From Labilithrix sp. (GTDB lineage Bacteria; Myxococcota_A; Polyangia; Polyangiales; Polyangiaceae), in contig JAHBWE010000017.1 of assembly GCA_019637155.1 (NCBI GenBank), forward strand, positions 1 through 64,000: 64,000 nucleotides of DNA, given 5' to 3'. Below, in pieces: positions 5,118 to 22,933 of the stretch. The stretch's first letter is position 1; each line of letters begins with the position of its first letter. The translations under genes and the position numbers were made by a program. Below the pieces are notes generated by a model. It worked only from the letters and a program-made list of their open reading frames with translations. It was not told the origin of the DNA and did not search any database.

Positions 5118-5163
5118 GTCGCTCGGGTATCACGCCGCATGCGCGGAGAACACGGAGAACGGG

Positions 5164-5577: not shown

Positions 5578-5858
5578 CACGGGCTGGTCTGCCCGGTCAT
5601 CTCGCGGAGCCACAGGCGGAGCCGGAGCCTCGCGCTCCCGTCGGTGCTCTCGCCGATTGCGACCTCAAGGGTCGTCGTGGCGATGTCCGCTTCGTGGTCG
5701 AATAAGGCAGGGGCGACCATCGGCGTCCAGCCGTTCTCGCTCGCGAGGTGATGCCAGCCGCGCACTGAAGGCGCCGCGCGGTGAAGCTGCCAGCGCGTCT
5801 CGCGCGGCAGGAACGACGACGAGATCAGGTCGGGATGCGCCTCGGCGAGCTCGGTCAT
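5577..5858 (-). CDS. hypothetical protein (93 aa)
   Basis: Stop overlaps start of DAC-like gene (ATGA); protein-like composition. Confidence 0.35.
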   Translation of the reverse strand: MTELAEAHPDLISSSFLPRETRWQLHRAAPSVRGWHHLASENGWTPMVAPALFDHEADIATTTLEVAIGESTDGSARLRLRLWLREMTGQTSP

Positions 5859-6023
5859 CCAGTCAGGGACACGCCCAAACGCGTGGAGCCATGACGAGAT
5901 GAGGCGCGCCGCGCGGCAGGTCGAGTCTGGCAGTTGACTGACCGCCCACTCCGACGCAGCCTTGCCCCACTCCGCCCGGATCCATCCTCGCCACCTGTGC
6001 TCGTCAAGCGTGGCGAGGAGCAG

Positions 6024-6422
6024 CTAGCAGAGGGCTTCGTGGTCGCCGTCGCGGTGGACGCGGGGCATGATGCGCTCGACGCCGTGACCTGCGTGGACTG
6101 CGGTCATCACCGGCGACATCGACCGGATCGACATCAGCACGCGCCGGACCGCGCTCGAGACGTGCAGCGCCCGTCCGAGCGCGGAGATCACGTCGGCGAG
6201 ATCGGCCTCCGTCGGCCGGGCGCGAGGGAGCATGATTCGGATAACGTTCGCCGCGTCCTCGCGGTCCTCCGCGTCGGCGCGCATATCGCCCAGCACGGAG
6301 GTCGCGCGGCGCAAGGTCTCCTTGGCGTAGGAGCGGACCACGAGTGGAGGTACGCGACGGACGTCCGAGCCTGCGGCCCGGCAGCCCCGGCTGCAGCTGT
6401 ACGCTCCGAAATGCACGACCAA
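6024..6422 (-). CDS. hypothetical protein
   Basis: ORF upstream of 5577..5858 on same strand; weak. Confidence 0.25.
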   Translation of the reverse strand: MVVHFGAYSCSRGCRAAGSDVRRVPPLVVRSYAKETLRRATSVLGDMRADAEDREDAANVIRIMLPRARPTEADLADVISALGRALHVSSAVRRVLMSIRSMSPVMTAVHAGHGVERIMPRVHRDGDHEALC

Positions 6423-6791
6423 GAGCAGCTACAGAATCTTCTGAACGCGTTCGCCGACCTTCCCCTCGAATGCGACGGTATGACGAGGGTGCTCTCGTTC
6501 GCCCTGCGGGAGGCGGGCGTACCGCACGTCGCCAAGGCCGGAGACCTGCTCGTCGACGGCGTTCGCGTTGTCCCGATCCACTTCTGGATCGAGCTCAGCG
6601 ACGGCTCGCTCGTCGACTATCGGGCCCGGATGTGGAGTGGCGAGGGCGACCACGTCCCTCACGGAGTGTTCCGCTCGGAGGATTGCCCGCGCGTCGAGTA
6701 TCGCGGCGAGGCGGTCGACGTCTCGATGCCACGCGTCGTTTTCGACGTGCTCACGCGTGACAGGTGCGCCGATGCCTCCAGCCGATGCTGA
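6411..6791 (+). CDS. hypothetical protein (127 aa, internal Met of ORF 5934..6791)
   Basis: C-terminal 127 aa have balanced composition (W,F,Y,H); upstream part of ORF is Arg/Pro-rich artefact. Confidence 0.35.
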   Translation: MHDQEQLQNLLNAFADLPLECDGMTRVLSFALREAGVPHVAKAGDLLVDGVRVVPIHFWIELSDGSLVDYRARMWSGEGDHVPHGVFRSEDCPRVEYRGEAVDVSMPRVVFDVLTRDRCADASSRC

Positions 6792-6938
6792 CGCGGGCCG
6801 GAGCGGCGGCGTCTTGGTTCGCTCGTCAGCATCGGCCAGAACAGGGCAAGCCCCCACGCCTCCTCGCCGATGTCGCGGACGTCCAGCTGGAGCTCCTCGT
6901 GAGCGGTCCGGCCTGCCCCGCGACGGTCGGCGTGTCTT

Positions 6939-6951
6939 GGGGGGGGGGGGG
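6939..6951. repeat. G13 homopolymer tract followed by GATAAT and a 7-bp-stem hairpin
   Basis: ttgggggggggggggataat read directly; aaccttc-cttcggagc-gaaggtt hairpin at ~6976-6998. Confidence 0.9.
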
Positions 6952-7081
6952 ATAATCGCATACAGGATTGTCGTAGAACCTTCCTTCGGAGCGAAGGTTC
7001 ATGCACGGATCTCGCCGAGGGACCCGTGCGCCGAGACCCGCCGACCGGATCAACGCGAGAACGGTCCCAAGCCAGAGACGC

Positions 7082-7627
7082 CTATCGTCGGACGTCTCGC
7101 GTCGTACCGTGAGCCTCGAGTCGGCAGTCCGAGATGTGAGGAGCGACCTCTCCGAGACCCCGCTCCGTCTGGATCCGCCCGGTGACGCCAACCATCTCGC
7201 CCGTGTGAAGCGAGGCGAGGGACCCCGTGTCCAAGCGGCACAGGAAAGCGAGACCCTGCCCCGTTTGGACGAGCAAGCCGGTCGGCAAGATTTGGGCTTC
7301 CCCGGTCACGTAGAAGATCCCCGTGTAGACGCTCCGTGCCTGTACAGGGTTGTCGTTGACGTCCCGGATGAGCTGCGGAACGTCGAGGACGGGTGCGCTC
7401 TTGCGCGCGTTCTCCTGATCGCGCTCCACCTTCTGCTTGGCTTCCACGCGGAGGCGGTCTTGCCGCTCCTCCTCCTTACGGGTCGCCTCGGCGTGTTGGG
7501 ACATGCCGAAGAGGATGAGCCCGAGCAACAGTGCACCGGCCCCAGCGGCGCCCAGAATCAGACGCTGTCGCTTACGGTGCCCCTCCACCATGGACTTGAT
7601 GGCCGGATCATCTGAGTAGTCGTCCAT
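7082..7627 (-). CDS. membrane-anchored hypothetical protein (single TM, OB-fold-like C-terminal domain)
   Basis: Start MDDYSDD with GGGGGAAGAG upstream; hydrophobic segment LILGAAGAGALLLGLILFG; divergent from XRE regulator. Confidence 0.5.
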   Translation of the reverse strand: MDDYSDDPAIKSMVEGHRKRQRLILGAAGAGALLLGLILFGMSQHAEATRKEEERQDRLRVEAKQKVERDQENARKSAPVLDVPQLIRDVNDNPVQARSVYTGIFYVTGEAQILPTGLLVQTGQGLAFLCRLDTGSLASLHTGEMVGVTGRIQTERGLGEVAPHISDCRLEAHGTTRDVRR

Positions 7628-7720
7628 CTCTTCCCCCGAATTCGGGCTCCGCGCTTGGCTCGGACCGGGAGCCGGCTTCCTGCGGATCACCTCAAAGTGC
7701 GAAACTAACACTATCGCTTT

Positions 7721-8026
7721 ATGTTTTGGAAGGACGCTCTCCGCGACCTTCCCGGCGTGCGGAAGCTCGATCCTGAACGCGTCGTCGACGGCGTTGGACG
7801 CCGGGTCGCCGAGCTCCGGAAGGAGCGCGGCTGGACGCAGGCCGAGCTCGGCGAGCGCATCAACTTCACGTTCCAGTACGTCGCCCGCATCGAGGGCGGC
7901 GTGAACCTCACGATCCACTCCCTAACGCACCTCGCGAACGCCTTCCGCGTGCCGATCGCCGCGCTGTTCGAGCCTCCCCGCGACGAAGCCCCTCGGCGGC
8001 CTGGTCGGCCACGGAAGAAGGGGTAG
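7721..8026 (+). CDS. XRE-family (Cro/C1-type) HTH transcriptional regulator
   Basis: VAELRKERGWTQAELGERINFTFQYVARIEGG is a classic HTH_3 signature. Confidence 0.75.
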   Translation: MFWKDALRDLPGVRKLDPERVVDGVGRRVAELRKERGWTQAELGERINFTFQYVARIEGGVNLTIHSLTHLANAFRVPIAALFEPPRDEAPRRPGRPRKKG

Positions 8027-8030
8027 ACGT

Positions 8031-8333
8031 TCATTCTCGAGGGCCCGCCTTGCGTCGTCGCCGCTTCGGCCTTGCGCCAAGCACGAACGCCAGGCCCTCG
8101 AACGCGGCGTCGTCGAACCACTGCCTCAGGTCATTCACGTCATCTTCACCGAGCGCGACGCCCACGAACACCCGGCCTCCGTGCTCCGCGGCCGTGCGGA
8201 TCGCGGCCTCGGCGTTGTCCACGCCGTCGTAGAGCCCGAAGCTGGCGAACACGGAGCCGTCGAGCGCGACCGCGATCGGTGAAGGGTGGAGCTGACGCCA
8301 TGTCTGCCGCCCCCTCTTCCGCGCCCGGCTCAC
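8031..8333 (-). CDS. small basic protein, paralog of 8571..8861 (possible GTG start)
   Basis: IAVALDGSVFASFGLYDGVDNAEAAIRTAAEHGGRVFVGVALGEDD...KRRRRK aligns with downstream paralog. Confidence 0.35.
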   Translation of the reverse strand: MSRARKRGRQTWRQLHPSPIAVALDGSVFASFGLYDGVDNAEAAIRTAAEHGGRVFVGVALGEDDVNDLRQWFDDAAFEGLAFVLGARPKRRRRKAGPRE

Positions 8334-8570
8334 TGGCCACGGGCCGCCCAGACCGCGGCGATAAACGGGATGACGATGACGCCAATTGCGAACAGCCAGT
8401 GCCGAAGGCCGACGTGCGCCGGACCGTGCGTCATGAGCATGCCGCGCGCGCCGCAGCGAGGACACCGCCGGGCTCCCCAGGCGACCGGCCGACCGCAGAC
8501 GCCGCACGGGTGTCGGAGGAGTGCCGAGAGGTCCATGAAAGCGGGTACGCGGAGGCGAGCGACGTCTCCG

Positions 8571-8861
8571 TCACCGCCGCTTCTTCTTCGCATCCTTCGC
8601 CGTGTTCTTTCTCCGCCTCCGCTCGCGGGCGACGAACGCCGCGCCGGCGCCCTCGTGCCCGGCGTCGTCGATGCGGGCGAGCACGTCGCGGGCCTCACGA
8701 CCTCGAAGCTTCACCCCGATGAAGATGGCGCCGCCGAGCTCGATCGCCCGGCGGAGGATTCCCTCGGAATCCCTCTCGCCGGCGAAGCCGTGGACGTTGG
8801 CGACGACCGAGCTGTCCGACGCGACCGCGATCGATGCCTTGTGGATCTTCGGCCTCCTCAT
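8571..8861 (-). CDS. small basic protein, paralog of 8031..8333
   Basis: MRRPKIHKASIAVASDSSVVANVHGFAGERDSEGILRRAIELGGAIFIGVKLRG...KKKRR; weak resemblance to Rossmann/CoA-binding-like fold. Confidence 0.4.
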   Translation of the reverse strand: MRRPKIHKASIAVASDSSVVANVHGFAGERDSEGILRRAIELGGAIFIGVKLRGREARDVLARIDDAGHEGAGAAFVARERRRRKNTAKDAKKKRR

Positions 8862-9263
8862 TCGCCAACCTCGCGAAGGCGAGGCGGGCCGAACATCTTG
8901 TCGAATAGCCTTCGTGCGGGAGGGTCCAGGTGGGCGCGCACCGAAGTCCGGAAGGCCTCGTCCTCCCGGGCGCGAACGCAGAGGGCAACCCAGCGTCGGC
9001 CGCGGCGGGTGAGGCACACGGAACACGCCCCGGTGCTCGGATCGAGGCGCCTGGGTCGGGCCAGACAAGCCCTACATGCCCCGATTCTCGCCGGCGCTGT
9101 CATTACGGGGCGCCCGTCCTTGCGTTCGGCGGCATTTCGGACGCGCTCGGAGGGGACGGGACGCCCGCGGGTGCCTTCGGCGAGTGCGAGACAGACGGAA
9201 GGCCGGCGGATCCGCTTCCGTCCCAGGTGATGCAGACGTAGAGCAGGAGTAAAGCGAGGAACA

Positions 9264-9860
9264 TCATGGGGCGGTACACGGATCCTCCCGACCGACTGTT
9301 GACCCGTCCGCGACGGCTCCGCTGATGAAGCCTGCCCGAACAGTCTTGCCCCAACGGGCGTGCGAGCCAAAGCGCCGGGCGTACCCGTCGGCGATGTGGA
9401 GCAGTCGCCGTCGCAACCTCGGATCCTCGGACGCGCGGATGATGGCGAGCTGCCAGCTCGTAGGCATTGCGCCATCGAAGTCCCGAAGGCCGATCAACAC
9501 GCGCACCGCCGACACGAACGTCTCGACGTGCCCCTGTGCGTGGGCGCGGTCCGCCGCACGCCGGGTCCACTCCGTGATCCGCTCGTGGTCGCCGAGCGCG
9601 TCGCGGAGCCCCAAGAGTAGAGACCGGACGACGGCCGCAAGATCGAGTGATCGGTGCACCGCCGTGAGGACGTCGGTTACGACGGCCTCGTCAATGTTCT
9701 CCCGAAGAAGGAATGCGAGCGCCCTGGCGGCGGCCTTTCGCGTCCGCTCGTCGAGTCGATGGTCGGCCACATCGCGGAGAACGCGAGCGTAGAGGCTTTC
9801 GAAGGCCGGGTGCTCGAACGCGCTCTCCGGCCCGCGTCGCGCCGATACAGGGGCGCTCAT
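9264..9860 (-). CDS. hypothetical protein
   Basis: Start MSAPVS overlaps stop of upstream gene (ATGA at 9857-9860). Confidence 0.4.
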   Translation of the reverse strand: MSAPVSARRGPESAFEHPAFESLYARVLRDVADHRLDERTRKAAARALAFLLRENIDEAVVTDVLTAVHRSLDLAAVVRSLLLGLRDALGDHERITEWTRRAADRAHAQGHVETFVSAVRVLIGLRDFDGAMPTSWQLAIIRASEDPRLRRRLLHIADGYARRFGSHARWGKTVRAGFISGAVADGSTVGREDPCTAP

Positions 9861-10486
9861 GGATCGACTCGCTTGCACACGGCGCACTGGATCTCGTACT
9901 CCAGCGAACAGTCGGTGCTGTACGCGTTGGCGAGGCGCTCGTCCGAGCGAAGAAGGCGCAACCAGTCAGGCAGCGGCGCGCTCTCTTGCTCCAGCCTCCT
10001 CGCGCAGTGGAACGCGATCAGATGGAGCGGCACGTGCGCGTTCGGCATCTCGTGGGCGGCTCGGACGCCTCGCTCCCATTCCGGACTGAGCGTTGGTTCG
10101 ACACCGTCGAGCCGCACGGCGACGTGCGCGAGCCAGGCGAACGTGGCCCAGTGCTCGCCACGGAGGGCCCGGTCGGCGAGGTTGACCACCCAGTCGACGA
10201 GACGCTTCCAGGTACCGTCGGCGCTACGGCAGCCGCCGCAGCTCCAGACGCCGCGGATGAGGCGCTGCACGGCTTCCGGCGAGTCGAGTACCTTGCGGGC
10301 CGTCGACAGCGTCTCGGCAAGGCGCTGCTCCGTCTCGGGGAGGTGCTCCAGGGCGTGCTCGGCGACGCGCGCCCACGCGATCCTCTGGCCCGGCGTTGTC
10401 GCGGGCGACCGGATCTCGCGGAGGGCCTGCGTGAGCAGGCTGTCGTAGACGGCGACCACGTCGCCGTCGGACCGTTCGGGAACCAT
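9857..10486 (-). CDS. hypothetical protein (209 aa)
   Basis: Varied composition with W/C/H; translationally coupled to downstream gene. Confidence 0.4.
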   Translation of the reverse strand: MVPERSDGDVVAVYDSLLTQALREIRSPATTPGQRIAWARVAEHALEHLPETEQRLAETLSTARKVLDSPEAVQRLIRGVWSCGGCRSADGTWKRLVDWVVNLADRALRGEHWATFAWLAHVAVRLDGVEPTLSPEWERGVRAAHEMPNAHVPLHLIAFHCARRLEQESAPLPDWLRLLRSDERLANAYSTDCSLEYEIQCAVCKRVDP

Positions 10487-10555
10487 CCTCCCTGATACGT
10501 TTGAGCGAGCCCGACCTCCGGACTGACACCGCGCGTCACGGAATCCGAAGTGCGG

Positions 10556-10888
10556 TCACCACGCCCGGCTGCGAAGCATCTCGACCAAGAGGTCAGCGGC
10601 GAGCGTCTCGGCGGGAACCTCCCCGTCCTCGGCGAGCTCGGCGAGGAGCGCCCACTCGAACTCGGGAAGCGCGACGCGGAGCGTTCCCGCGGGCGCGTGT
10701 GCCTTCAGCTTGGTGATTCGGCACGCGCTGGACTTGGCGATGCCGAACCTCCCGGCGATCTCGGCGAGGGGCGCACCGTTCGCGCGGAGCCGGCGGACCT
10801 CCTCGGCCTGGCCGGGGGAGAGCTTCGCGGCGAACGGGTGCGGGCGGGAATTCATCGCCGGGACGGCGGGACAAGAGGGCGATGCCAC
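10556..10888 (-). CDS. small HTH_7 (resolvase/Hin-like) helix-turn-helix protein
   Basis: LSPGQAEEVRRLRANGAPLAEIAGRFGIAKSSACRI resembles resolvase C-terminal HTH. Confidence 0.5.
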   Translation of the reverse strand: MASPSCPAVPAMNSRPHPFAAKLSPGQAEEVRRLRANGAPLAEIAGRFGIAKSSACRITKLKAHAPAGTLRVALPEFEWALLAELAEDGEVPAETLAADLLVEMLRSRAW

Positions 10889-11014
10889 GAGGGATCAGAG
10901 GAACTCGTCCGAGAGCTCGTCGCTTCGGTCCGTGGCCGACTCGTGATCGAACGCGCGGAGGACGTCATCGTCGCGCGAGGGCGATGGTCACGCCGCTGCG
11001 TAGTCGGACAGAGT

Positions 11015-12382
11015 CTACACTTCCGGAGGGCTCGAGGCCGCCGCGCTTGCGGAGGTTTTTGCCGTCATCGCCCACGTCGCGCCGGACGGCGTCGTCCGAG
11101 CCCGGTTCGAATGGCCAACGAGCTCGAGGATCGCCTCGGCCGCCGCGCCGGGACCGTCGGCCTTCGCGTAGATCGCGCGGATACGCTCCGCGGCGAGCTT
11201 GAAGCTCGCATCGCCGAGGACCTCCTTCACCATCGCCGTCATGCGCGGAGAGATCGCGTCCTCCTGAGAGACTCGGCGCGCCGCACCATGGCGCTCCATC
11301 TCCACGATGTTGAAGTCCTGCTCGGGCTGCAGCGGGATGCCGAGGAAGGGTGTGCCGCCGGCCATCGCCGTCTGCACGCTCCCCTGCCCTCCCGCGATGA
11401 TTGCTAGATTCACGCGCGGCATGATGCGATGGCTCGGGAGAATCTTTTCGACAATCACGTCCTCTCCCGCGAGATCATCGAGGTCGTGCACCGTCGACGC
11501 GACGACGACCCTCACGTCGGCGGCCCTCGCTCCTTGGACCACCCCGCGAATCAGGCTCTCCGGCGTCGAGGTCATCGCGACGTAGACCGTCGGTCGATCG
11601 GCTCCGGCATTCAGGAACTGCTCCACTCGCTCGGGTACGGGGGCGGAGAGTTCCGCGAACAGCGGACCGACGTAGCGGAGCTTCGTCCCGGCGCGATAGC
11701 GCGAAGGATGAGGCTTCCATGCCTCGAGGTCGGCGGCCGAGATACCGAGCACCTCTGGACAATCGGTGACGAGGGTGAGATCGCCGAGGAGGAGCGCGGC
11801 GAAGCTCGGCACGATTTCAACGCCGAGCTCCTCCGCAAGCTCGTTGAACTGGCCGCAATAGAGCCTCGCGCGCGATGGGGCTGAGTTCGTGAGCCAGAGC
11901 GCGACCGACCTCGGTAGCCATCGGCCAAAGGGGATCGTGGAGCGGAGTGGGATGGGTGACAGATTCCGTTCGCACACGGGGGGGACCCATGATCCCGCGT
12001 GATCGGTCACGAGAGGGATGCCGGCGAGTCGGGTCGAGAGGAGCGTGGTCAGAGCAAACCCGGTCACGACGCAGCGGACGGCTCGCTCGCGAAGGAGCTT
12101 CGCCTCGAGCTCTACGAGCGCTCGCAGCTCCTCACGCTCGTAGAGGCGCGCGCGAGGATGCCCGATTCCGGGAATCGCGCCGAGAAATGCGCGTGCCCGC
12201 TCGTTCGACCATCCGGGGCCGAGGACCGTATACGGCACTCGCTCGTCATCGAGCACACGCGTGTATGGCCCACCGTGCGTCACGATGCACGCCTCTGCCC
12301 CACGCACGACGAGCGCCTTGTAGATGGCAAGCGCGCGCGAGGTCTCCGAAAGGAACGCTGCGTTCGGGACGAGACAGATCAT
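11015..12382 (-). CDS. UDP-glycosyltransferase, GT1 family (MGT-like)
   Basis: 455 aa; C-terminal GT-B donor-binding region with GGQGS motif and PQ..DQ signature; N-terminal acceptor domain. Confidence 0.85.
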   Translation of the reverse strand: MICLVPNAAFLSETSRALAIYKALVVRGAEACIVTHGGPYTRVLDDERVPYTVLGPGWSNERARAFLGAIPGIGHPRARLYEREELRALVELEAKLLRERAVRCVVTGFALTTLLSTRLAGIPLVTDHAGSWVPPVCERNLSPIPLRSTIPFGRWLPRSVALWLTNSAPSRARLYCGQFNELAEELGVEIVPSFAALLLGDLTLVTDCPEVLGISAADLEAWKPHPSRYRAGTKLRYVGPLFAELSAPVPERVEQFLNAGADRPTVYVAMTSTPESLIRGVVQGARAADVRVVVASTVHDLDDLAGEDVIVEKILPSHRIMPRVNLAIIAGGQGSVQTAMAGGTPFLGIPLQPEQDFNIVEMERHGAARRVSQEDAISPRMTAMVKEVLGDASFKLAAERIRAIYAKADGPGAAAEAILELVGHSNRARTTPSGATWAMTAKTSASAAASSPPEV

Positions 12383-12387
12383 GCCAG

Positions 12388-12400
12388 ATATGTAACATAT
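12388..12400. promoter_or_regulatory. Perfect palindrome ATATGT-a-ACATAT in 23-bp gap between divergent GT and MarR genes (putative MarR operator)
   Basis: Sequence read directly; only AT-rich element in the 23-bp intergenic region. Confidence 0.5.
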
Positions 12401-12405
12401 TACCT

Positions 12406-12906
12406 ATGTCGAGCAAGCCGACCGTCTCCGAGGAGCCGGGCCTCGCGTTCTCCGAGGAAGAAGTGGACGCGCTGAGCCAGGACAAGATCGTACGGCTCCA
12501 GACGTTCCGGCTCCTGATCGTCCTCGCGAACGGTCTACGGAACATGACCGACAAGCTCCTCGCCGCAGATGGCCTGACGACGCAGCAGGCAGCGGTACTC
12601 ACGATCGCGCGAGGTCTTGGGCGGCCGTCCTTCTCCGAGTGCGCTACCGCCCTCGCGACGAGCCACCAGAACGTGAAGCAGATCGCGCTCGCCCTCGAGC
12701 GAAAGGGGTTCGTTCGCATCGTGCCCGATCCGAACGACGGTCGAATTCGCCGACTCCAAACGACACCGAAGAACGATCGCTACTGGGCCAAACGCAACCC
12801 AAGCGACCACGCCGCCGTCCTCGCGACCTTCAACGCGCTCACACCGCACGAGGCGCGCACGCTGTTCCGGTTGCTGACGAAGTTGAAGACCGGGCTCGAG
12901 GGCTGA
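12406..12906 (+). CDS. MarR-family transcriptional regulator
   Basis: Winged-helix region LTTQQAAVLTIARGLGRPSFSECATALATSHQNVKQIALALERKGFV; divergent to GT gene. Confidence 0.85.
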   Translation: MSSKPTVSEEPGLAFSEEEVDALSQDKIVRLQTFRLLIVLANGLRNMTDKLLAADGLTTQQAAVLTIARGLGRPSFSECATALATSHQNVKQIALALERKGFVRIVPDPNDGRIRRLQTTPKNDRYWAKRNPSDHAAVLATFNALTPHEARTLFRLLTKLKTGLEG

Positions 12907-13205
12907 GCGCGCCGCCGAGCGTGCTGCCGAATGGCGCGCCGCCATGCGTGGAAGGCCGCGTTCTCTTGGACGACCTCGCTCGCCCTCCCGCCAGCATGGC
13001 CGCAACGCCACGACGGACGATGCTCGGCAGGTCGTCCGTGACGGTCGAGCCAGGCCACGACATCACTGAAGCTCTGTTCCCTCTTCCGCCCACACCGTTC
13101 CGGCCGCTTCCTCTCGCCGACCGCTACTGGTGTGGCGACTGGTGTGGCGCGCGCTCCCGGAGGCGCGTTTTGCCCATGTTCGTCGAGCGATCCCGCCCGC
13201 CTCTG

Positions 13206-13255
13206 CCACCTTGCCAAGGTGGACGTCGAGGGTTCGAATCCCTTCTCCCGCTCCA
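13206..13255 (+). tRNA. Truncated tRNA-Gly(GCC): anticodon arm, variable loop, T-arm, acceptor 3' strand and CCA only
   Basis: CCACC-TTGCCAA-GGTGG anticodon stem-loop, GAGGG-TTCGAAT-CCCTT T-arm, CTCCCGC-T-CCA end matches tRNA-Gly; no complementary GCGGGAG 5' strand or D-arm upstream. Confidence 0.6.
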
Positions 13256-13261
13256 CTCGAA

Positions 13262-13290
13262 GGCCGCCGATGGCGGCCTTTCGCGTTTCT
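13262..13290 (+). terminator. Intrinsic terminator following tRNA fragment
   Basis: GGCCGCC-gat-GGCGGCC stem-loop followed by TTTCGCGTTTCT. Confidence 0.6.
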
Positions 13291-13423
13291 GGACGTAACG
13301 GAGCGTTACGCCAGGATGGTCGGACCGGTGGTGTGGCGCCGGGCCGGACTGGTGTGGCGAGTGGTGTGGACCGCCGGACGTTGGAGACGACGCGCGCGAC
13401 TGATAGAAGCCGTCTCCAGCGCC

Positions 13424-14266
13424 ATGCGTGCGAGAGAAACTGCCAGCAATGAACGCGAAGCCCAGCTCCTGACCGAGCTCTCGGATCTCGTCCACGGCGT
13501 CACGATGCCGTTCGCGTGCGGTGGCACCCTGGTGCCGAGCAAGGCGGTGACGCTGCACCTGAAGAACGGGCTGGAGGTCCCCATTCGCCGCGCAGCCGGA
13601 GAACGCGATCGCGATCCCGCCGTCGAGGATCTCGTCGAGCGCTGCGCCCCCGCCCCGTTCGGAAAGGGCAAGAGAACGCTGTTCGGCAGGTCCGTGCGTG
13701 ACGCCCGCCAGCTCAAGGCGGAAGGCGGCGCGTTCTCGGTCGCGGGCTTCGATCCCGTTGAATCCGGTGTGCTCGAGAGCGTGAGACGCGAGTTCGTGCC
13801 GCACGATCCCAACCCGCTGACCGCAGAGCTGTACTGTCTGAACGTCTACTCGCAGGGAGGCCACTTCGAGCCGCACAAGGACACTCCCCGTGGCGACGAC
13901 ATGCTCGGGACGCTCGTCGTGTGCCTGCCCGCCCGCTTCCGCGGCGGGCAGCTCCTCGTCACCCACCGCGGGGCACCACGCAGCTTCGACTGGGCACGCA
14001 AGGTCGAGGAGCAACTACCGGCACCGATGAGCGCGGAGGAGATCGACAATCCGGTTCCCGATCGGCCGGCTGTGCAACACTTCCACGGCTGCGAATACAG
14101 CGCGACGGGCTATTTCGGCAACGAGGGTGGCGACACGGACTTCTATGTCTACGCCGCGCTCCACGTGGAATGCCCGCCCTGGCCAAAACGGGCCGCACGG
14201 AGCAAGGCCGCAGCCCGGGAGAAGGCGCCGAGACGGGCTGTGAGAGCGACGCGTCGGGCGCCCTGA
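13424..14266 (+). CDS. 2OG-Fe(II) oxygenase superfamily protein (prolyl-4-hydroxylase-like)
   Basis: HFEPHKDT (HxD) ... LVTHRG motif arrangement typical of P4H-type double-stranded beta-helix. Confidence 0.7.
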   Translation: MRARETASNEREAQLLTELSDLVHGVTMPFACGGTLVPSKAVTLHLKNGLEVPIRRAAGERDRDPAVEDLVERCAPAPFGKGKRTLFGRSVRDARQLKAEGGAFSVAGFDPVESGVLESVRREFVPHDPNPLTAELYCLNVYSQGGHFEPHKDTPRGDDMLGTLVVCLPARFRGGQLLVTHRGAPRSFDWARKVEEQLPAPMSAEEIDNPVPDRPAVQHFHGCEYSATGYFGNEGGDTDFYVYAALHVECPPWPKRAARSKAAAREKAPRRAVRATRRAP

Positions 14267-14298
14267 CCGGGCACGACAGAGTGACAGGTCGGACCGCC

Positions 14299-14625
14299 AT
14301 GGCGAAGTCGCGGAGTCGCACGTCGAAGCAGAAGCGTCGCGACCGGAAGCGACGGGACGCGATCGCCGCCCATCCGCGAAGGCTCGCGCACGAGACGATG
14401 GTGCTCGTGGCCCCGCCCTGGGCGGACGTCGTTCGCAAGCTCATCGAGCGAATGCGCCCCTCTCCTGGTGCCGTTCCGATCCTCGCCGAGGAGCAGGACA
14501 TCGGCTCCGATCCAGAGTTTGTGGCGATGTTGGACGGCCGCTTCGCCCTCGAGACACAAGGCTTCGGCTGGAGTAGAGACCTGGCCCTCGCCAACGTGCA
14601 GTGTCTCTGCACCCTTGCCGAGTGA
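14299..14625 (+). CDS. hypothetical protein with basic N-terminus
   Basis: Internal Met of ORF 13921..14625; protein-like C-terminal region. Confidence 0.35.
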   Translation: MAKSRSRTSKQKRRDRKRRDAIAAHPRRLAHETMVLVAPPWADVVRKLIERMRPSPGAVPILAEEQDIGSDPEFVAMLDGRFALETQGFGWSRDLALANVQCLCTLAE

Positions 14626-15184
14626 GCTCCGGGTTGCGTTTCTTGCCGACGCCTTCGACGGCGATTGGCCGTACCTCGTGACGCGCGAAGTTCCTCTCGA
14701 AGGCAAGCGAAACCTCGATGAGATCCTCGCGAGCCATCCCGAGCCCGACGAGCCGGAGAGACCAAAGGATCCGTTCTTCGACAGCAAGGAGATGCGTGAC
14801 CTCCTGCACCTCGTGATCAACGCCGTGCTCTACGCGACATCGAGTGAGTTCACCTCGGAGGTTCGACGACCGCCCGCACCCGGCATGCTCGGTCCACGCG
14901 GCAAACCCCTCGAGTTGTCTGGCGAGACCGTGTTCTTTCTCCCGAACCGCATCCTCGTCGGTCCGCCGACGGATACAAGCGCCCTTCCAGCGGGCCGACC
15001 TGGACATAAGATCGAGAAGCGCTTCTGGGTGCGAGGACACTGGCGCAAGCCGAACCCGAGCTGGGAGGATCAACGGCTTCGTTGGATAGCACCGTACTTG
15101 AAGGGCCCCGAGATGACCGCGATCATCGAACGGGCGTACGAGTTGAAGGCAAGGGCTCGGAAAGATGAACGGAACCCCGATTGA
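14611..15184 (+). CDS. hypothetical protein (start uncertain; may be fused to preceding ORF by frameshift)
   Basis: Frame-2 ORF with balanced composition (DPFFDSKEMRDLLHLVINAVLY...) and no ATG near its likely start. Confidence 0.3.
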
Positions 15185-15593
15185 TCGGGCTCACGCGTCG
15201 TGTCGCTTCGCTCTCTCGCGATATTCCTCGACGGCCCCCCAGAACTCCCCCTTGTCCTCCTCCGAGTAGAGATGCTGGTTCTCCTCCATGAGTATCACTC
15301 CCGTCTTCGCAATCGCGAAAGCGATCTCGGGGCGGACCCCAGCCTCCACCGCCGCCGCCTCCAATGCGTTCGGGTCGGGCGTCGGCTGATCGGCGTCGGG
15401 GTCGAAGAAGACCGGATCGTTGGGACCGGGATTGGAACAGGCTGTGGATTTGCCGCTATCGAGCCCTATCGAGCCCTACCCGATGCAGCATGGTCCGTCG
15501 GGCCGTGCACACGCCTACACAGACCGGGATGCCTCTGAGACGGAACGGACAGCGACCAATACCTGGCGTGAGAGTATTGCTCAAAGCGCTTTG

Positions 15594-15900
15594 TCAGCGA
15601 CGAGGAGACGGGGCGCAAGAAGCTCCAATCTCTTCGGCCGAGGCGACAATCACCGCCTTGCGGATCCAGCGGTCGAGGAGCGCCACGTCAGAACAGCCGA
15701 GGATGCGCTCCTTCTGCTCGGCGGAGACGGCGATGCCGCGCGCGTCGAGGACGGTGAGCACGGCGGTCGCTTCGCCGTCCGCCTTGCCCGCGGCGCGGTG
15801 CTCCTTGAGGTGCTTCTTGAAGAAGTCGCTCTGGAACTCGTAGTTGCCTGGGCCATGAGATCCTCGAATGCGGCGCGCGCAACGTCGCCGAGTGAGATGC
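15594..15900 (-). pseudogene. C-terminal fragment of DUF4351 / Rpn-family (PD-(D/E)XK transposase-like) protein, frameshifted
   Basis: EATAVLTVLDARGIAVSAEQKERILGCSDVALLDRWIRKAVIVASAEEI is the conserved myxobacterial DUF4351 C-terminus; N-terminal nuclease part absent; MPYFDLIGISLG...DLMAQ continues in another frame. Confidence 0.55.
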
Positions 15901-16011
15901 CGATAAGATCGAAGTATGGCATGGCGCGCTCGTCGTCGAGGCGGCGGCGCGAACTTTTCGCGCGGCGCGATGGCCCCTCTGCGGTAGGTCGGCGGCGAGC
16001 TACACTCGATG

Positions 16012-16090
16012 GGGTGAGCGAGTCCCCGTTCCTCACCGAGCGCGCGCGGATCCGAGCGCCGGTCGTGATGTCGTTCGCCGCTGCCGCCGG
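16012..16090. repeat. Copy A of ~78-bp dispersed repeat (about 90% identical to 20925-21005)
   Basis: ggtgagcgagtccccgttcctcaccgagcgcgcgcggatccgagcgccggtcgtgatgtcgttcgccgctgccgcc aligned by eye to copy B. Confidence 0.8.
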
Positions 16091-16391
16091 AGCCGCGCTG
16101 CTCGTTTCGCCACATGGCGAGGTCGTTCTCGCCGACGGAGCACTTGGCGAGGTCGATGCGATGCACATCGCGCGGCGGGCCGACCGCCCGATGAGCGACG
16201 AAGAGCGTCGCGCTATCGCCGAAGCTCGGGCGAACCCGCAATGGGTCCACGGCGACATCGTCTCCGCGGAGATCGCCGAGCGGCACGACGTGAGGCGAAG
16301 GCGCGACGCGAGGGATGAGGCAGGTTTGGTGGGCGGCGCGGCGAGCGCCTCGCCGCGACCGACCTCTCGAGTTCCCAGCTCGATTCAATAG
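16018..16391 (+). CDS. hypothetical protein (GTG start) whose N-terminus lies in dispersed repeat
   Basis: N-terminal SESPFLTERARIRAPVVMSFAAAAG conserved with ORF at 20927; weak. Confidence 0.25.
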
Positions 16392-16418
16392 AAGTCGTTC
16401 GTGCGATACGCTGCATCC

Positions 16419-16631
16419 ATGTCGGCAGCTTTACTCGGGCGCGTTCACGGTGCGGTGATCGAGCTCGACGCCCCCGTCCCCGAGCTGGAAGGCCAGCGCG
16501 TTCGACTCATCGTCGAGACGGTCGATGAGTCCGCCGACCCGAAGATGCTGCAGGCAGCGTGGGACGCGTGGCTCGTCCGATCACCCGACGGACCCATCGT
16601 GGACGAGGATGACGACCCGGAGTTCCCGTGA
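16419..16631 (+). CDS. putative type II antitoxin (MazE/AbrB-like)
   Basis: Small acidic protein immediately upstream of and overlapping (GTGA) a MazF-like toxin gene. Confidence 0.5.
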   Translation: MSAALLGRVHGAVIELDAPVPELEGQRVRLIVETVDESADPKMLQAAWDAWLVRSPDGPIVDEDDDPEFP

Positions 16632-16947
16632 TTCGGCGCGGCCAAATCCGATGGTTTCGGTTCTCGCTCCCCGACAAGCGGCGGCCGGTCCTCGTGCTCG
16701 GCCGTGATGACGTGCTGCCATCACTCGCGCAGATCCCCGTCATTCCGATCTCGAGTCAGGTGCGTGGGCTCGCATGGGAGGTGTCCCTCGGCAGCCCGAT
16801 GGGCTTCCGTCGACCTGCGTTCTCAAACCCGAGTGGATTCGGATTGTCGACCGCCCCCACCTCGGCCCGCTCATCGCAACGATGCCGGAGGCGCGTTGGG
16901 GCGACGTGCGGCGCGCCCTCCTCGATGTACTCGGACTGGACGGCTAG
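16628..16947 (+). pseudogene. mazF: MazF/PemK-family mRNA interferase toxin gene with apparent -1 frameshift near 16800
   Basis: Frame 2 gives IRWFRFSLPDKRRPVLVLGRDDVLPSLAQIPVIPISSQVRGLAWEVSLGSP; frame 1 continues DGLPSTCVLKPEWIRIVDRPHLGPLIATMPEARWGDVRRALLDVLGLDG*; together a 107-aa MazF. Confidence 0.7.
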
Positions 16948-16984
16948 CCGCTCGGCGACCGCAGGCAAGGAAGGAGCGGCGGCG

Positions 16985-17287
16985 ATGATCGCGAGCGGAG
17001 TCTCCGCGTCCGGTCTCGTGCTCCGCTCGCCGCAGGAACGCGACCTCCTCGCGCTCCTCGACGACATCTGCCGCCGCCGCGCCGTCACCCGCGACGACGT
17101 CTGCGGCGTCATGCGGACGAAGGCTATCGTGCGCGCTCGTCACGAGCTCTGGTGGTCTCTCCGCCATCACGCCGATCGCTTCTTCAGCTTCGAGGAGATC
17201 GGCCGCCTCTTCCGTCGCGATCATGCCACCGTCCTTCACGGCGTTCGCGCTCACGCGCTACGCCTCGGCGAGCGCGCCGCGACGTAG
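16985..17287 (+). CDS. small protein with DnaA domain-IV-like HTH
   Basis: AAGGAG SD 9 nt upstream; SFEEIGRLFRRDHATVLHGVRAHALRL resembles DnaA C-terminal DNA-binding helix (cf. IGxxFGxRDHTTV). Confidence 0.55.
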   Translation: MIASGVSASGLVLRSPQERDLLALLDDICRRRAVTRDDVCGVMRTKAIVRARHELWWSLRHHADRFFSFEEIGRLFRRDHATVLHGVRAHALRLGERAAT

Positions 17288-17296
17288 TCGACGATC

Positions 17297-17333
17297 GCAG
17301 CAGGACCGACCCTTCCCGCGTCGGTCCTGCTGC
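17297..17333 (+). terminator. Perfect 14-bp GC-rich stem hairpin after DnaA-HTH gene
   Basis: GCAGCAGGACCGAC-ccttcccgc-GTCGGTCCTGCTGC; weak T tract downstream. Confidence 0.45.
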
Positions 17334-17536
17334 GGCTTGCTCCGATTTCTCCGGATCTTCGCGCTCGTCAACAGGTGTGGACGCGAGCGCGCCTTGTCCG
17401 CGCTCGCACATGGCCTATCGGCCTCGTGAGCACCTCGAGGTAGCACGGGCGCGGGCCCTGACGCCGCCGGTGCCCGTACCCACCGCGGGGATGGTGCTCG
17501 CGGACCGCTACCGCATCGCGATGCTCGCCAACGGTC

Positions 17537-17740
17537 GTGTACGTTGGCGGCGACACCCAGCTTGAGGTCGTGGCGCCGAACGCGCGCTCGATGATGGCCC
17601 GAACGCTCCTGGGCGAGCACGTCTTCTTTTGCCCGGAGACGAAGAAGGTCGAGGTCGACGGCGCGCGAGGCCAGGCGATCGCGAAGCTCCTCCGCCTCCG
17701 CGCCGTCGCCGAGGCGAGCGATGCGACGGAGCGATGGTGA
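17537..17740 (+). CDS. small hypothetical ORF
   Basis: Balanced composition; may belong to 17152..17565 frame by frameshift. Confidence 0.2.
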   Translation: MYVGGDTQLEVVAPNARSMMARTLLGEHVFFCPETKKVEVDGARGQAIAKLLRLRAVAEASDATERW

Positions 17741-17863
17741 AGTGACGCGACGACGTTCGTCGTCGAGAGGACGCGGAGGCGTACGTCCAGCACGACCGTC
17801 GCCCATGCGCCGAGAGGACGGTTGCCGAAGCTGCGCGCGCCCATGCTTCGCGGTGAGAGCACT

Positions 17864-19066
17864 TCATTGCGCCCGCCCGAGTCCGTGGAGGCGGTAGAGG
17901 AGCTGCAGCGGACCCTTCTGGGGGTCGGCGAGGGGGCCCGAGAGGGTGGTGAGAAACTGCTTCACGAGGCTCTCGCGCAGCCAGCCGATTGAATACTGCG
18001 CGAAGGGCATGCCATAGGAGTTGTGGGAGGCCACCCACGCGGTCGTCTCCGCGAGCAGCTCGGCGACGAGCTGCCGATCGCGTTCGTCGGAGGGCGGAGC
18101 GGTCACCCAAGGCTGGAGCTCGTCGAATAGTTGCGCCCGCTCCGGATCGCTTTGGCCGTAGCGTCGCAGTACCTCCAGGCTCGTCCGCGGCGGCTTCTTC
18201 GCGTTGAGCTCCGCGCCCTTGTTGTTGATGAAGAGCTCGCGCCCGTTCAAGCGCACGCGGGCGCGCCCCTTGTCGAACGCAGAAGGGCCGCCGAGGTAGT
18301 CATCGAACCGTGCGGCGATCACCATCTCGCCAGCGTGGTTGAGATAACCCCATTTGCCGTCAAGCTTGAAGGCCGCGCGAGCTTCGCTGAACTGACCGAT
18401 AGCCTCGTAGATACAAGGAACCACCTCTGCGCCGACTTCGTCGACGATACCGTATTTACCGTCACGTTTGACGACGGCAATTCCGTCTTTGAACAGGACA
18501 TGCCTCTCGTAGAGGCAGGGAATGATGGCGCGGCCCGCGCGGTCGAGGACGCCGTGGTTCCAGTCCGCGTCGGCGACCAGCGCACGACCTTCGCTGAAGG
18601 TCAGCGCGTCGGCGTACTCGCAGGGGATGGCGACCGCACCGGTCGTGTCGAGGTAGCCGTTCCGCTGTTCGCCCTCGGCGCGCCTGCACATCGCCAGCCC
18701 CTCCGAGAACGGGGCGATCCACGAGTATTCGATAGGCGTGATGACCGTCCCACGCTCGTCGAGCAACCCGATGCGCGCGCCTCGATTGGCGATCAGGATG
18801 CGATGTCCTGCGTGTCCGAGCTCGTCGTACTCGAGCGGAACCACCTCGTCACCGCGTTCGTCGACGGCGCCCCATTTTCCGCCGAGGTGCTCGAGCCGCG
18901 TGGGTTCGTGGTTGTCCGACCGGTCACACAGACCTCCGCCGAGGCAGACGATGCCGAGCCCTTCGCCTTCAGGTGGCTCCACCGCGTGGTCGTACTTCGG
19001 AGTGACGAGGACCTTGCCCTGCTCGTCTTGAAAACCGAACTTGCCGTTGGCTCTGAGGATCTTCAT
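17864..19066 (-). CDS. WG (KWG) repeat-containing protein
   Basis: Multiple GKWG(Y/A)(L/V)(D/N) repeats across 400 aa. Confidence 0.8.
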   Translation of the reverse strand: MKILRANGKFGFQDEQGKVLVTPKYDHAVEPPEGEGLGIVCLGGGLCDRSDNHEPTRLEHLGGKWGAVDERGDEVVPLEYDELGHAGHRILIANRGARIGLLDERGTVITPIEYSWIAPFSEGLAMCRRAEGEQRNGYLDTTGAVAIPCEYADALTFSEGRALVADADWNHGVLDRAGRAIIPCLYERHVLFKDGIAVVKRDGKYGIVDEVGAEVVPCIYEAIGQFSEARAAFKLDGKWGYLNHAGEMVIAARFDDYLGGPSAFDKGRARVRLNGRELFINNKGAELNAKKPPRTSLEVLRRYGQSDPERAQLFDELQPWVTAPPSDERDRQLVAELLAETTAWVASHNSYGMPFAQYSIGWLRESLVKQFLTTLSGPLADPQKGPLQLLYRLHGLGRAQ

Positions 19067-19259
19067 GGTCTCCCGTGACCGCAGCTTGCTTCGTCGGGGC
19101 GTTCATGGCCGCAGCAATCCCAAGAGGCGTCGCGTCGAAGAGCGGAGAGCTCGCCGGATCGGCGGACGCGTAGAAGCGTGGGCCCGCTCCCCGTGTTGCG
19201 AACCGAGGGATCCTCGGGGAGCACCAGATCGAGCGCGACCATATAGACCTCGGCGCACC

Positions 19260-20105
19260 TCATTCGTCGCCTCGGAGCACACGCAGCGCGTGTTCGATGA
19301 CCGCGCGTCGCGGCTCGAGTCGGGCGGCCTGGAGCGCCAGCACCCGAGCGAGCGCGAGGCGGTCGGGGCCGTCGTCATCGTCGTACGGGGGTGGGCAACG
19401 CTTGGCTAGATCGAGGAGCCGCGACGAGGTGACCGGAAATCCGACCGTCCACGCCTCCACGAAGGCGAGCGCCCGCTCTCGCACGCGAGCGTCGGCGTGG
19501 ACGAGCAGGAGCGTCACTGCGGGCCATCCGATGCGGAGCAAATAAGGATGACGATACGCGCTCAGGCGTTCCCATAGCGACGACGTGGGGGCGGCGAGCT
19601 TCGCTGCCAGCACTTCAGCTGACGGGTACACGACCGGTACGTGTCGACGCGCGTTCGGGTGGCCGCCACAACACCAGCCATCCGCGTGGTCGAGCCAACC
19701 AACCTCCTTGACACCGCCGATCTCGGCGATCGAACACTTGCACAGATAGATCCTATCGCGGGTGCCCCACGTGACGCGCGGGGGCGAGAGCGGCGTGCCC
19801 TCGTAGATCGCGGGGAGCTCTTCGCGCGCGAGGGGGCCCGCGACGCTGAAGGACATGCAGTCGAAGGTCTTGACCCGTACCTTGCAATCGCCACAGACGA
19901 GGCGACTACAGCCGATGACCTCGTCGTGCTCGCCCCAGGGCTCGTCTTTCGCCTGCCGGCGCCACGGCTCGTCGTCCGCCTGCGGGAGCCAGCTCCCCAT
20001 CCCGACGAGCAAGCCACCCCTGCTGCAGAACTCGAGCGCGCGCTCTGGTGCTGGAGTCGTGATCTGCACGGGCGCAATCGTCACCCGGCCTCGCTCGCCC
20101 CGCAA
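19260..20105 (-). CDS. hypothetical Cys/Trp-rich protein (likely start Met36 at 20000)
   Basis: Varied composition incl. CGDCKV, WCCGGHP. Confidence 0.45.
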   Translation of the reverse strand: MRGERGRVTIAPVQITTPAPERALEFCSRGGLLVGMGSWLPQADDEPWRRQAKDEPWGEHDEVIGCSRLVCGDCKVRVKTFDCMSFSVAGPLAREELPAIYEGTPLSPPRVTWGTRDRIYLCKCSIAEIGGVKEVGWLDHADGWCCGGHPNARRHVPVVYPSAEVLAAKLAAPTSSLWERLSAYRHPYLLRIGWPAVTLLLVHADARVRERALAFVEAWTVGFPVTSSRLLDLAKRCPPPYDDDDGPDRLALARVLALQAARLEPRRAVIEHALRVLRGDE

Positions 20106-20668
20106 CCCGCGTAGTCGTCACGCGCGTCGGAGGAAGAGCTCGACGCACTGCTGCGCGCGAGCAGTGCCCCGAGCTCCGTCCGCTCCTTGTGCTCTTTCTT
20201 CAGGGCCGCGAGCGTGCGCAGCTCGAGCGAGACCTCATTCGTGAAGGACCACTTCGCCGGCGCCGCGACGAGCGCATCCTCGAGGCTCCCGCGATGCGAG
20301 CTCCCGAGGTCACGCGAGAGCCCCTCGAGCATCGGCACGTCCTTGGCGCGGATCCCAAGCTCGACGATCGCAGGAACGAACGTTCGAGACACCACCCCCG
20401 GAAACTCTCCTACGATGCTCTTCGCGTCGGACGACACGCGACCCTCGGCCCACCTCGTCACCACGTCCTCGGCCGTCGCGCGCTGGGAGTCGCTCAGGTC
20501 GTCCGCCCCCTTGCCGCGGTAGATGGCCTGGTAGCTCATCGTCGCCTGCCCAAGCTCCCCACGCGCCGCAGCGGCCTCCGCCGACCGCACCGACGCTTGG
20601 ACGCTCGAGCCGCAGCCGACACACGACAGCGAGAAGAGAAGCCCCAACCCGAACCACACCCGCCTCAT
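20081..20668 (-). CDS. lipoprotein, hypothetical
   Basis: Signal peptide MRRVWFGLGLLFSLSCVGCGSS with lipobox-like Cys; upstream part of ORF is Arg-rich artefact. Confidence 0.55.
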   Translation of the reverse strand: MRRVWFGLGLLFSLSCVGCGSSVQASVRSAEAAAARGELGQATMSYQAIYRGKGADDLSDSQRATAEDVVTRWAEGRVSSDAKSIVGEFPGVVSRTFVPAIVELGIRAKDVPMLEGLSRDLGSSHRGSLEDALVAAPAKWSFTNEVSLELRTLAALKKEHKERTELGALLARSSASSSSSDARDDYAGCGASEAG

Positions 20669-20924
20669 GCCCCCGGCCGACGGACCGAGCCTCCGCACCC
20701 CGTCCCCATGGACGTCCTTACCAAGAGACTCGCCCGAGTTCACGCGCATCGTTTCATGCTGCAATGAGTATCCGACCTCTTTCAATCTCCAAGATCGCGG
20801 GCACCGATCGAGGCGCCCCTTCGACATGACGACAGTGTCGCCTCGACGTCGGCAATCGGGTCGACCGGAAGCCCGTACTTCTTCTTCGCCGCGGCGAAGA
20901 CGACGCGGGCGCGTACCGGTCACC

Positions 20925-21005
20925 CGGTGAGCGAATCCCCGTTCCGCACCGAGCGCGCGCGGATCCGAGCGCCGCTCGTAGTGTCGTTCGCCGCGGCGGC
21001 GGGTC
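20925..21005. repeat. Copy B of ~78-bp dispersed repeat
   Basis: ggtgagcgaatccccgttccgcaccgagcgcgcgcggatccgagcgccgctcgtagtgtcgttcgccgcggcggcg. Confidence 0.8.
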
Positions 21006-21253
21006 CACCACCGGGCTCGGCGGCGGAGCGATCGGCGAGCGCGAGCGCGGCAGACGGCGCTCCGGCGGAGGCATTCCCCGCGACGTTCCGGCGGGAGACA
21101 AGGCGATACTGGTGATCCGGGTGCGGCCGGAGCCACCGGAGCACCGAGAGCACAGGGCAGCGCCGCCGGGCCCAAAGGCGATCCCGGCGACCCGGGCGCG
21201 GCAGACGCTGCAGGCGCTCGGCTCCTGCGCGCCACGACGTCGGGAAGCTTCCG

Positions 21254-22893: not shown

Positions 22894-22933
22894 ACGACCC
22901 GACATCGCGCCGAAGCCCGAGGCGACGGAGTCG

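Follow-up and report, generated by a model that had tools for sequence, protein, structure and literature searches.

The attachment site of phage lambda (attP) is heterobivalent: it combines arm-type with core-type sites, the P arm containing P1 and P2 and the P' arm P'1-P'3. The myxophage Mx9 reportedly integrates into the tRNA-Gly genes of Myxococcus xanthus. Islands that use tRNA genes (tDNAs) as targets have been catalogued in Islander, including attP sites of about 250 bp, displaced fragments of the target gene, an anticodon-centred class of integration (class A) whose displaced fragments start at the anticodon stem, and tandem arrays at tDNAs (PMC4383910). The integrases known to target tRNA genes are all tyrosine integrases (PMC4383910). 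Accretion and cis-mobilizable elements (CIMEs), with decayed partners lacking an integrase, are well documented; ICESt1/ICESt3-CIME in Streptococcus thermophilus and the pathogenicity islands of Streptomyces are cases of tandem accretion (PMC5704250). Here we describe a feature of this ordinary kind at positions 13126-13371 of a 64-kb stretch of Labilithrix DNA (contig JAHBWE010000017.1; hereafter the window), where a displaced 3' part of a tRNA-Gly(GCC) gene lies between direct repeats. The site is most likely the attachment-site relic of an integrative element that targets tRNA-Gly, and it is probably an attP-like (P-core-P') junction of two islands that entered a tRNA-Gly hot spot in tandem, the right one being old and decayed. 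The product of 13425-14266, immediately to its right, is 100% identical to protein KIT84_20130 of a metagenome-assembled genome of Labilithrix sp. (Myxococcota).

With lambda attP, the site has in common its size of about 246 bp, its two plus three repeats and an inverted-repeat core with a 7-nt spacer, but it has no adjacent int or xis gene, its five repeats are all direct, and it lies inside a chromosome rather than on an episome. The target reported for Mx9 is the same kind of gene in the same phylum, but no phage genes were found in the window with PHROGs. As in ICE/CIME accretion (ICE, integrative and conjugative element), two islands at a single target gene would be separated by an internal attachment (att) site, the partners also occur separately elsewhere, and one partner is decayed and without recombination genes; the present case differs in having a myxobacterial host and a tRNA gene as target, and the arrangement is seen here at its internal att site. 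With the class A islands (PMC4383910), it shares a 3' tDNA fragment beginning with the anticodon stem and matching the cognate tRNA without differences, low-GC island-like DNA and, in the window's relatives, a tyrosine integrase beside the regenerated tRNA gene; it differs from them in having arm repeats on both sides of the fragment and no tyrosine integrase in the visible 13.2 kb of the left island.

Results and discussion

A displaced tRNA-Gly(GCC) fragment between direct repeats

The site consists of the following features; L numbers denote loci of our comparison set.

13090-13096, minus strand: sixth, inverted GGTGTGG, of uncertain membership in the site; not conserved in L013 or L061.
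13126-13149, plus strand: upstream (P-arm) tandem pair of 12-mers (ACTGGTGTGGCG twice), presumptive arm-type sites at the right end of the left-hand island; a homologous pair occurs in L013.
13204-13255, plus strand: displaced 3' part of tRNA-Gly(GCC), from the anticodon arm through variable loop and T arm to the 3' acceptor strand, discriminator and CCA; matched exactly by 59 intact tRNA-Gly genes of Polyangia.
13206-13222, plus strand: presumptive core site, the inverted repeat CCACC/GGTGG (anticodon stem) around the 7-nt loop TTGCCAA; homology boundary in five fragments.
13260-13290, plus strand: 9-bp GC-rich hairpin (-19.5 kcal/mol) with an interrupted T tract, the tRNA terminator; L013, L038, L061 and L077 have the identical sequence.
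13289-13314, plus strand: second hairpin or palindrome, CTGG-A-CGTAACG-GAG-CGTTACG-CCAG, -14.9 kcal/mol, z = -4.0.
13327-13371, plus strand: downstream (P'-arm) repeats GGTGGTGTGGCG, ACTGGTGTGGCG and AGTGGTGTGGAC, oriented as the upstream pair; they recur in L061, L076, L077 and L079.

The letters at 13204-13255 read TG-CCACC-TTGCCAA-GGTGG-ACGTC-GAGGG-TTCGAAT-CCCTT-CTCCCGC-T-CCA. The anticodon arm CCACC-TTGCCAA-GGTGG (13206-13222, anticodon GCC at 13213-13215) is followed by ACGTC, by the T arm GAGGG-TTCGAAT-CCCTT (13228-13244), and then by the 3' acceptor strand CTCCCGC (13245-13251), a T and CCA (13253-13255). The tRNA-Gly(GCC) of Polyangiaceae, Labilithrix included, is identical to the fragment over nucleotides ~25-76 (its 3' 52 nt). 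Identity begins at 13204 (TG), two bases ahead of the anticodon stem, and reaches the tRNA's 3' end, so that the fragment is terminal rather than internal, as Islander expects of a 3' fragment. The 5' acceptor strand and the D arm are absent from the sequence as read. ARAGORN called zero tRNAs across the whole 64-kb window, Rfam found nothing at gathering thresholds, and Rfam in E-value mode returned only a sub-threshold tRNA match whose acceptor stem is broken (20.5 bits, cut-off 29). The fragment is not a functional tRNA. These results bear out the initial annotation, which had recognized a tRNA-Gly(GCC) 3' part without its 5' half and had proposed looking for a full-length tRNA-Gly call in the window, of which ARAGORN made none. 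Other weak Rfam matches (CRISPR-DR20 at 12999-13044, E = 0.09, and others) were taken as chance.

For comparison, genome contigs were scanned for the exact 46-nt tRNA 3' part (13206-13251), which gave 62 loci, almost all of Polyangiaceae or Labilithrix origin. Of these, 59 contain an intact tRNA-Gly(GCC) gene whose 5' half is GCGGGAGTAACTCAGTGGTAGAGTG, and the other three (L013, L015 and L061) are fragments resembling that of the window. Two further loci, L076 and L077, came from a scan of metagenome contigs with the downstream repeat pair as query; one of the three metagenome matches to this pair, L075, has neither a tRNA fragment nor a hairpin near it and looks like chance. A plasmid collection searched with window positions 12400-14300 gave zero matches, as did viral contigs searched with the downstream (P') repeat pair. 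Viral contigs did contain 12 matches to the 28-mer of the T arm and acceptor strand; those called by ARAGORN were tRNA-Gly genes within multi-tRNA arrays, and these matches were set aside as irrelevant.

In five independent fragments (the window, L013, L061, L076 and L015), tRNA homology starts either with the anticodon stem's 5' base or two bases earlier. The layout of an inverted repeat flanking an overlap region of 6-8 bp fits the core of a lambda-type site, and by analogy CCACC/TTGCCAA/GGTGG would be the integrase core, with strand exchange in the loop. The crossover is placed in the anticodon loop because the homology boundary lies at the anticodon stem in the five fragments, as in class A (PMC4383910).

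TGGTGTGG occurs five times in the window, always inside 13128-13369, against 0.35 copies expected in 64 kb, and 0 of 100 shuffles reached five copies. The initial annotation had counted the same five GGTGTGG(C/A) copies around the fragment, and the count holds. The copies extend to 12-mers of the ACTGGTGTGGCG type (13126-13137, 13138-13149, 13327-13338, 13348-13359 and 13360-13371) with the consensus (A/G)(C/G)TGGTGTGG(C/A), all in direct orientation, and together the two plus three copies span about 246 bp (13126-13371). An imperfect 38-nt direct repeat (13115-13152 and 13337-13374) also brackets the fragment. By analogy with known attachment sites, the GGTGTGG 12-mers are presumptive arm-type sites that would be bound by an integrase. 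Because repeats of the same sequence stand on both sides, two to the left (P) and three to the right (P'), the site is arranged like a complete attP, ~250 bp long.

Between the fragment and the P' repeats lie the two hairpins. The first, AAGGCCGCC-GAT-GGCGGCCTT at 13260-13280, is real (-19.5 kcal/mol). A simple terminator scan made no call at 13260-13290 because the T tract is interrupted (TCGCGTTTCT), which also makes its earlier description as a classic hairpin and T-tract terminator slightly overstated. The second hairpin is present, with mismatches, in L038, L061, L076, L077 and L079, and may be a protein-binding site or a second terminator.

A conserved module with unrelated flanks

Comparison with the relatives by blastn and alignment revealed a module of ~250 bp with the order two upstream repeats, tRNA 3' part from the anticodon stem, GC hairpin, second hairpin and three downstream repeats. 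The window aligns with L061 of Labilithrix luteola over 13134-13371 only (86%), with L013 of Labilithrix ACE_MYX5 over 13113-13296 only (84%), and with L038 of ACE_MYX8, where the tRNA is intact, over 13204-13346 (92%). Outside the module, the flanks are unrelated and differ in gene content, the exception being one 95-nt match in L038, and tblastx of the window flanks against all loci gave only noise there. A homologous upstream arm with a fragment was found in two other Labilithrix genomes and one metagenome contig. These fragment-type cases carry an upstream arm of the same repeat, in two copies in the window and in L013, where the homologous pair lies at an equal distance from the fragment, and in a single copy in L061.

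A module with 84-92% conservation across species between flanks that are not conserved, with a terminator-like hairpin at its end and with repeats that could be operators upstream of a 2-oxoglutarate (2OG)-Fe(II)-oxygenase-like gene, might be read as a functional non-coding unit, either a small RNA derived from a tRNA or a regulatory stretch with repeats that a transcription factor would bind. We give this reading next to no weight: no Rfam family matched, no tRNA-like fold was predicted and no promoter-like site was found; the conserved 3' part is identical to a tRNA gene, as a recombination core would be; the upstream part varies among genomes; and the variation of the second hairpin among loci was read as non-compensatory.

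The right half of the module follows a whole tRNA or a fragment alike. Three or four P' copies stand after the fragment in L061 and L076 (in the latter, fragment and then three repeats), after the intact tRNA in L077 and after a short fragment in L079, and they are degenerate after the intact tRNA in L038. L077 carries an intact tRNA-Gly with a promoter-like upstream region, both hairpins and four good repeats. The right side has a counterpart in L079, a Joint Genome Institute contig with 77-80% nucleotide identity to window positions 13233-15432; the two have in common the last part of the tRNA fragment, the second hairpin, three repeats of the GGTGTGG type and the 2OG-like and AcrVA2-like genes that follow. 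Since both the downstream repeats and these genes are shared with L079, the repeats are read as the left end of an element that carries the two genes. The upstream side of L079 differs, with four copies of the unrelated repeat GTTTCTCCAAAG and a tRNA fragment that begins at the T loop. L080 retains only the last repeat and the 2OG gene. The two-copy P arm is common to the window and L013 only, and the P' arm with the 2OG-like and AcrVA2-like genes is common to the window and L079 only (L080 in part); the two sides of the module assort independently. In L079, the GTTTCTCCAAAG copies form two tandem pairs (8510-8610), 130-220 nt upstream of the T-loop-start tRNA-Gly fragment, and could represent the arm used by an integrase of another class at this tRNA.

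This assortment bears on another reading, in which the whole low-GC region would be one element that entered by other means, for example through a serine recombinase, and 13126-13371 would be its intact, unused attP. The site does have the full layout and size, with two arm sites, a core and three arm sites in 246 bp; a real attP of the same design exists in L015; a serine recombinase gene is present at 3778-4569; and the module of L. luteola is solitary. We nevertheless consider an idle attP very unlikely, given that the P arm goes with L013 and the P' arm with the 2OG-like and AcrVA2-like genes goes with L079, next to another upstream arm and fragment, that no integrase lies beside the site, and that the serine recombinase is truncated (263 aa, profile positions 79-309 of 651).

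Tyrosine integrases at tRNA-Gly in Polyangia

Integrase genes were sought in the loci and in the window with a hidden Markov model (HMM) of the tyrosine-integrase family. In 13 other Polyangia loci, a gene of this family, which carries PF00589, lies just downstream of tRNA-Gly on the opposite (minus) strand. Wherever the interval between tRNA and integrase was read, direct repeats were present in it: GGAGCACAC three times in L023, GGAGCACCACCT three times in L018, and TCACACC (reverse complement of GGTGTGA) in L068 and L037. The canonical left-end (attL) order in this clade is tRNA-Gly, element-borne terminator, three direct repeats and minus-strand integrase, and these four loci support the earlier likening of the GGTGTGG repeats to integrase arm-type sites. 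TCACACC repeats as in L068 and L037 also occur in L036, L046 and L070. L041 has two copies of GTGGTGTGAA and one inverted copy, with no integrase found at the locus. A 25-nt repeat follows tRNA-Gly in five to six copies in L026 (GGAGAGATCTGACCGACGTTGAAGC, L026 200-400), where no integrase of the family was found within 8 kb; this tRNA gene is the second of two tandem intact tRNA-Gly(GCC) genes (L071 and L026) at ~10.56 Mb of L. luteola. Altogether, at least six arm-repeat types were seen across the tRNA-Gly loci examined, and tRNA-Gly(GCC) is a busy integration hot spot in Labilithrix and Polyangia.

L015 is a complete attP of the same design as the window site, with two direct repeats, the fragment, two more direct repeats and an integrase 1.3 kb away. 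Its CCCATGCCG repeats stand on both sides of the tRNA-Gly fragment (L015 1700-4430), and its integrase is 43.6% identical to the L068 type. The contig is binned as a Thermoplasmata archaeon; we suspect a mis-binned Polyangia element, possibly episomal.

In L. luteola, a PF00589 integrase gene on the minus strand, AKJ09_02425, lies 1.77 kb downstream of the GGTGTGG-type module; it is truncated, and HTH_17 and IS66 genes are close by. In a protein search, this integrase fragment had three short homologs and the L068 integrase had 317.

A probable junction of two tandem islands

The initial annotation had taken the site for an attR junction of a tRNA-targeting element, with cargo to the left and native DNA to the right. 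That it is an attachment-site relic stands; that the right side is native does not agree with L077 and L038, with L079 or with the GC content. The GC content is 0.61-0.71 over 1-23 kb, on both sides of the fragment, and mostly 0.69-0.76 beyond. For 1-13 kb, this anomalous composition goes together with accessory genes, as expected of an island, and the low GC continues to ~23 kb.

With a simple attR, there would be one island to the left, and everything from 13256 rightward, including the hairpins, the three repeats and the 2OG gene, would be native. In L038 and L077, the first hairpin does come after intact tRNA-Gly genes whose promoters look native, and a terminator with a TTTCGTTTCTGG tail follows tRNA-Gly in the more distant Polyangiaceae L033, L035 and L062. 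In L033 (3052-3150), an intact tRNA-Gly is followed by a similar hairpin and an GACGGAGCG motif, and the stretch where repeats would be expected is masked (run of N). The spacer after the tRNA also differs between intact copies and fragments, as if the fragments kept B' and the intact copies carried P'. Against a simple attR, the genes beyond the repeats differ in every genome (the window, L061, L076, L077 and L038), with no native-type synteny within the genus; the downstream repeats match the element-side pair in sequence and orientation; L079 links the P' repeats to genes of mobile-element type (2OG-like, AcrVA2-like, then an SNF2 helicase); GC stays low until ~23 kb; and a truncated integrase follows the module in L. 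luteola. On balance, we regard a simple attR as unlikely.

We favour a P-core-P' junction over a simple attR because the hairpins and P' repeats follow intact tRNA-Gly in L077 and L038, because of the linkage in L079, and because GC is low on both sides. As in accretion, the internal att site is flanked by low-GC DNA to the left and right, and each side is also found separately (L013 for the left; L079 and L080 for the right). The tyrosine integrases of this lineage would exchange strands in the anticodon loop, and each incoming element would carry its own copy of the tRNA's 3' part, beginning with the anticodon stem, so that integration would rebuild the tRNA gene at the left end of the element and move the old 3' part to its right end. 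An element with the left end P' repeats-2OG-like-AcrVA2-like would have entered at the tRNA first. A second element with the same arm specificity would then have entered the rebuilt tRNA gene and displaced its 3' part (13204-13255), leaving a P-core-P' junction between the islands (tandem accretion). The right end of the left element would be the glycosyltransferase-MarR region with the P arm; the left island would continue beyond the window, with an intact tRNA-Gly and an integrase expected upstream of it, and the right island would have decayed after accretion.

Several observations weigh against a junction of two islands. No tyrosine integrase or remnant of one was found in any frame of the 64-kb window by tblastn, phmmer, the family HMM or Pfam scans, so that the cognate integrase which adjoins a lambda-type attP is absent from beside the site. 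No intact integrase adjoins any GGTGTGG-type instance either (the window, L076, L077, L038, L013 and L079), and L. luteola has only the truncated one. To the right of the site, the window contains no second displaced tRNA-Gly fragment, which in a tandem array would stand at the outer att site and close the right-hand island. In L. luteola, the module has no intact tRNA-Gly in the stretch from -8.2 to +12.2 kb around it, and the only intact copies with the exact 3' half are 8 Mb away. Finally, the 8-nt spacer between tRNA end and hairpin reads AAGAAAA in intact copies and is ACAGCGA-like in fragments (n = 6), and simple attL/attR pairs, given a B' resembling P', predict such a systematic difference more readily than accretion does.

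The missing integrases could also be explained if the GGTGTGG module were the recombination site of gene cassettes without an integrase of their own, shuffled at tRNA-Gly by an integrase acting in trans. This would account for the six of seven instances without an integrase, for the truncated one in the seventh (L. luteola), and for the unrelated flanks. It would amount to an integron-like system using a tRNA-derived, attP-like site, whose units would be small sets of a regulator plus an enzyme (glycosyltransferase-MarR, epimerase-TetR, Arr, glyoxalase and methyltransferase genes). We think it highly improbable that the module works in this way.

Genes and composition of the flanking regions

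The two flanks of the junction contain the following features.

1-13203, no strand: left-hand lower-GC island, part visible, with a truncated serine recombinase, XRE helix-turn-helix (HTH), HTH_7, glycosyltransferase and MarR genes.
3778-4569, minus strand: truncated large serine recombinase of 263 aa, covering profile positions 79-309 of the 651-position phrog_95.
7721-8026: XRE HTH.
10556-10888, minus strand: HTH_7 protein.
11015-12382, minus strand: macrolide-type glycosyltransferase (UDPGT / EryCIII-like_C).
Ending at 12906: MarR gene, divergent to the glycosyltransferase.
13372-22100, no strand: right-hand lower-GC region, read from its GC and damaged genes as an older decayed island; right boundary approximate.
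13372-13428, plus strand: inverted repeat GTTGGAGACG ... CGTCTCCAGC within the 2OG-like gene's leader, part of the right-hand island; flank conserved in L079 and L080.
13425-14266, plus strand: 2OG-Fe(II)-oxygenase-like gene KIT84_20130, the right-hand island's first gene, in synteny with L079 and L080.
14292-15432, plus strand: AcrVA2-like gene remnant and downstream sequence; syntenic with L079 10324-11734, with ~260 nt deleted.

The serine recombinase retains the Resolvase domain and the first half of the Recombinase domain and is probably a pseudogene. It is unlikely to be the relevant enzyme, since the integrases known to act on tRNA genes are all of the tyrosine type. A prophage reading of the left region was rejected, matches to PHROGs being limited to the serine recombinase and the HTH proteins. 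Directly to the left of the att site lies the divergent glycosyltransferase-MarR pair (11015-12906); the equivalent position is occupied by other regulator-enzyme or resistance-type genes in relatives, in L013 by a TetR gene with epimerase and Arr genes, and in L038 by glyoxalase, methyltransferase and NmrA genes.

On the right, KIT84_20130 has 280 aa compared with ~470 aa in hundreds of homologs; its ends align with theirs, and a middle part of ~190 aa is deleted in frame. The family is widespread in soil metagenomes, mostly without a Pfam assignment. The open reading frame (ORF) of the AcrVA2-like region had no Pfam match in the window, and the region (14292-15432) is probably a pseudogene. 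The right island is read as decayed because of the in-frame deletion in the 2OG-like gene and the loss of ~260 nt in the AcrVA2-like one. In L079, the AcrVA2-like gene has AbiEi_4, SNF2 helicase and ResIII helicase genes as neighbours. Further to the right in the window, 16628-17287 (plus strand) shows an unusual pairing of a weak PemK/MazF-like N-terminal match with a DnaA C-terminal helix-turn-helix. The GC content at third codon positions of ORFs climbs from ~0.75 to ~0.9 near 22-24 kb, between a UDG-family gene (22138-22893) and a GGDEF gene (22794-24422), and the right limit of the island region likely lies there.

Conclusions

The finding is consistent with the current understanding of islands at tRNA genes and poses no challenge to it. 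Its value lies in marking an island boundary in Labilithrix, and more widely in Polyangia, which have been little studied. For annotation, the site sets the limits of the islands and explains the pseudogenes nearby, and the candidate integrase/att pairs of these tRNA-Gly loci could become genetic tools for myxobacteria.

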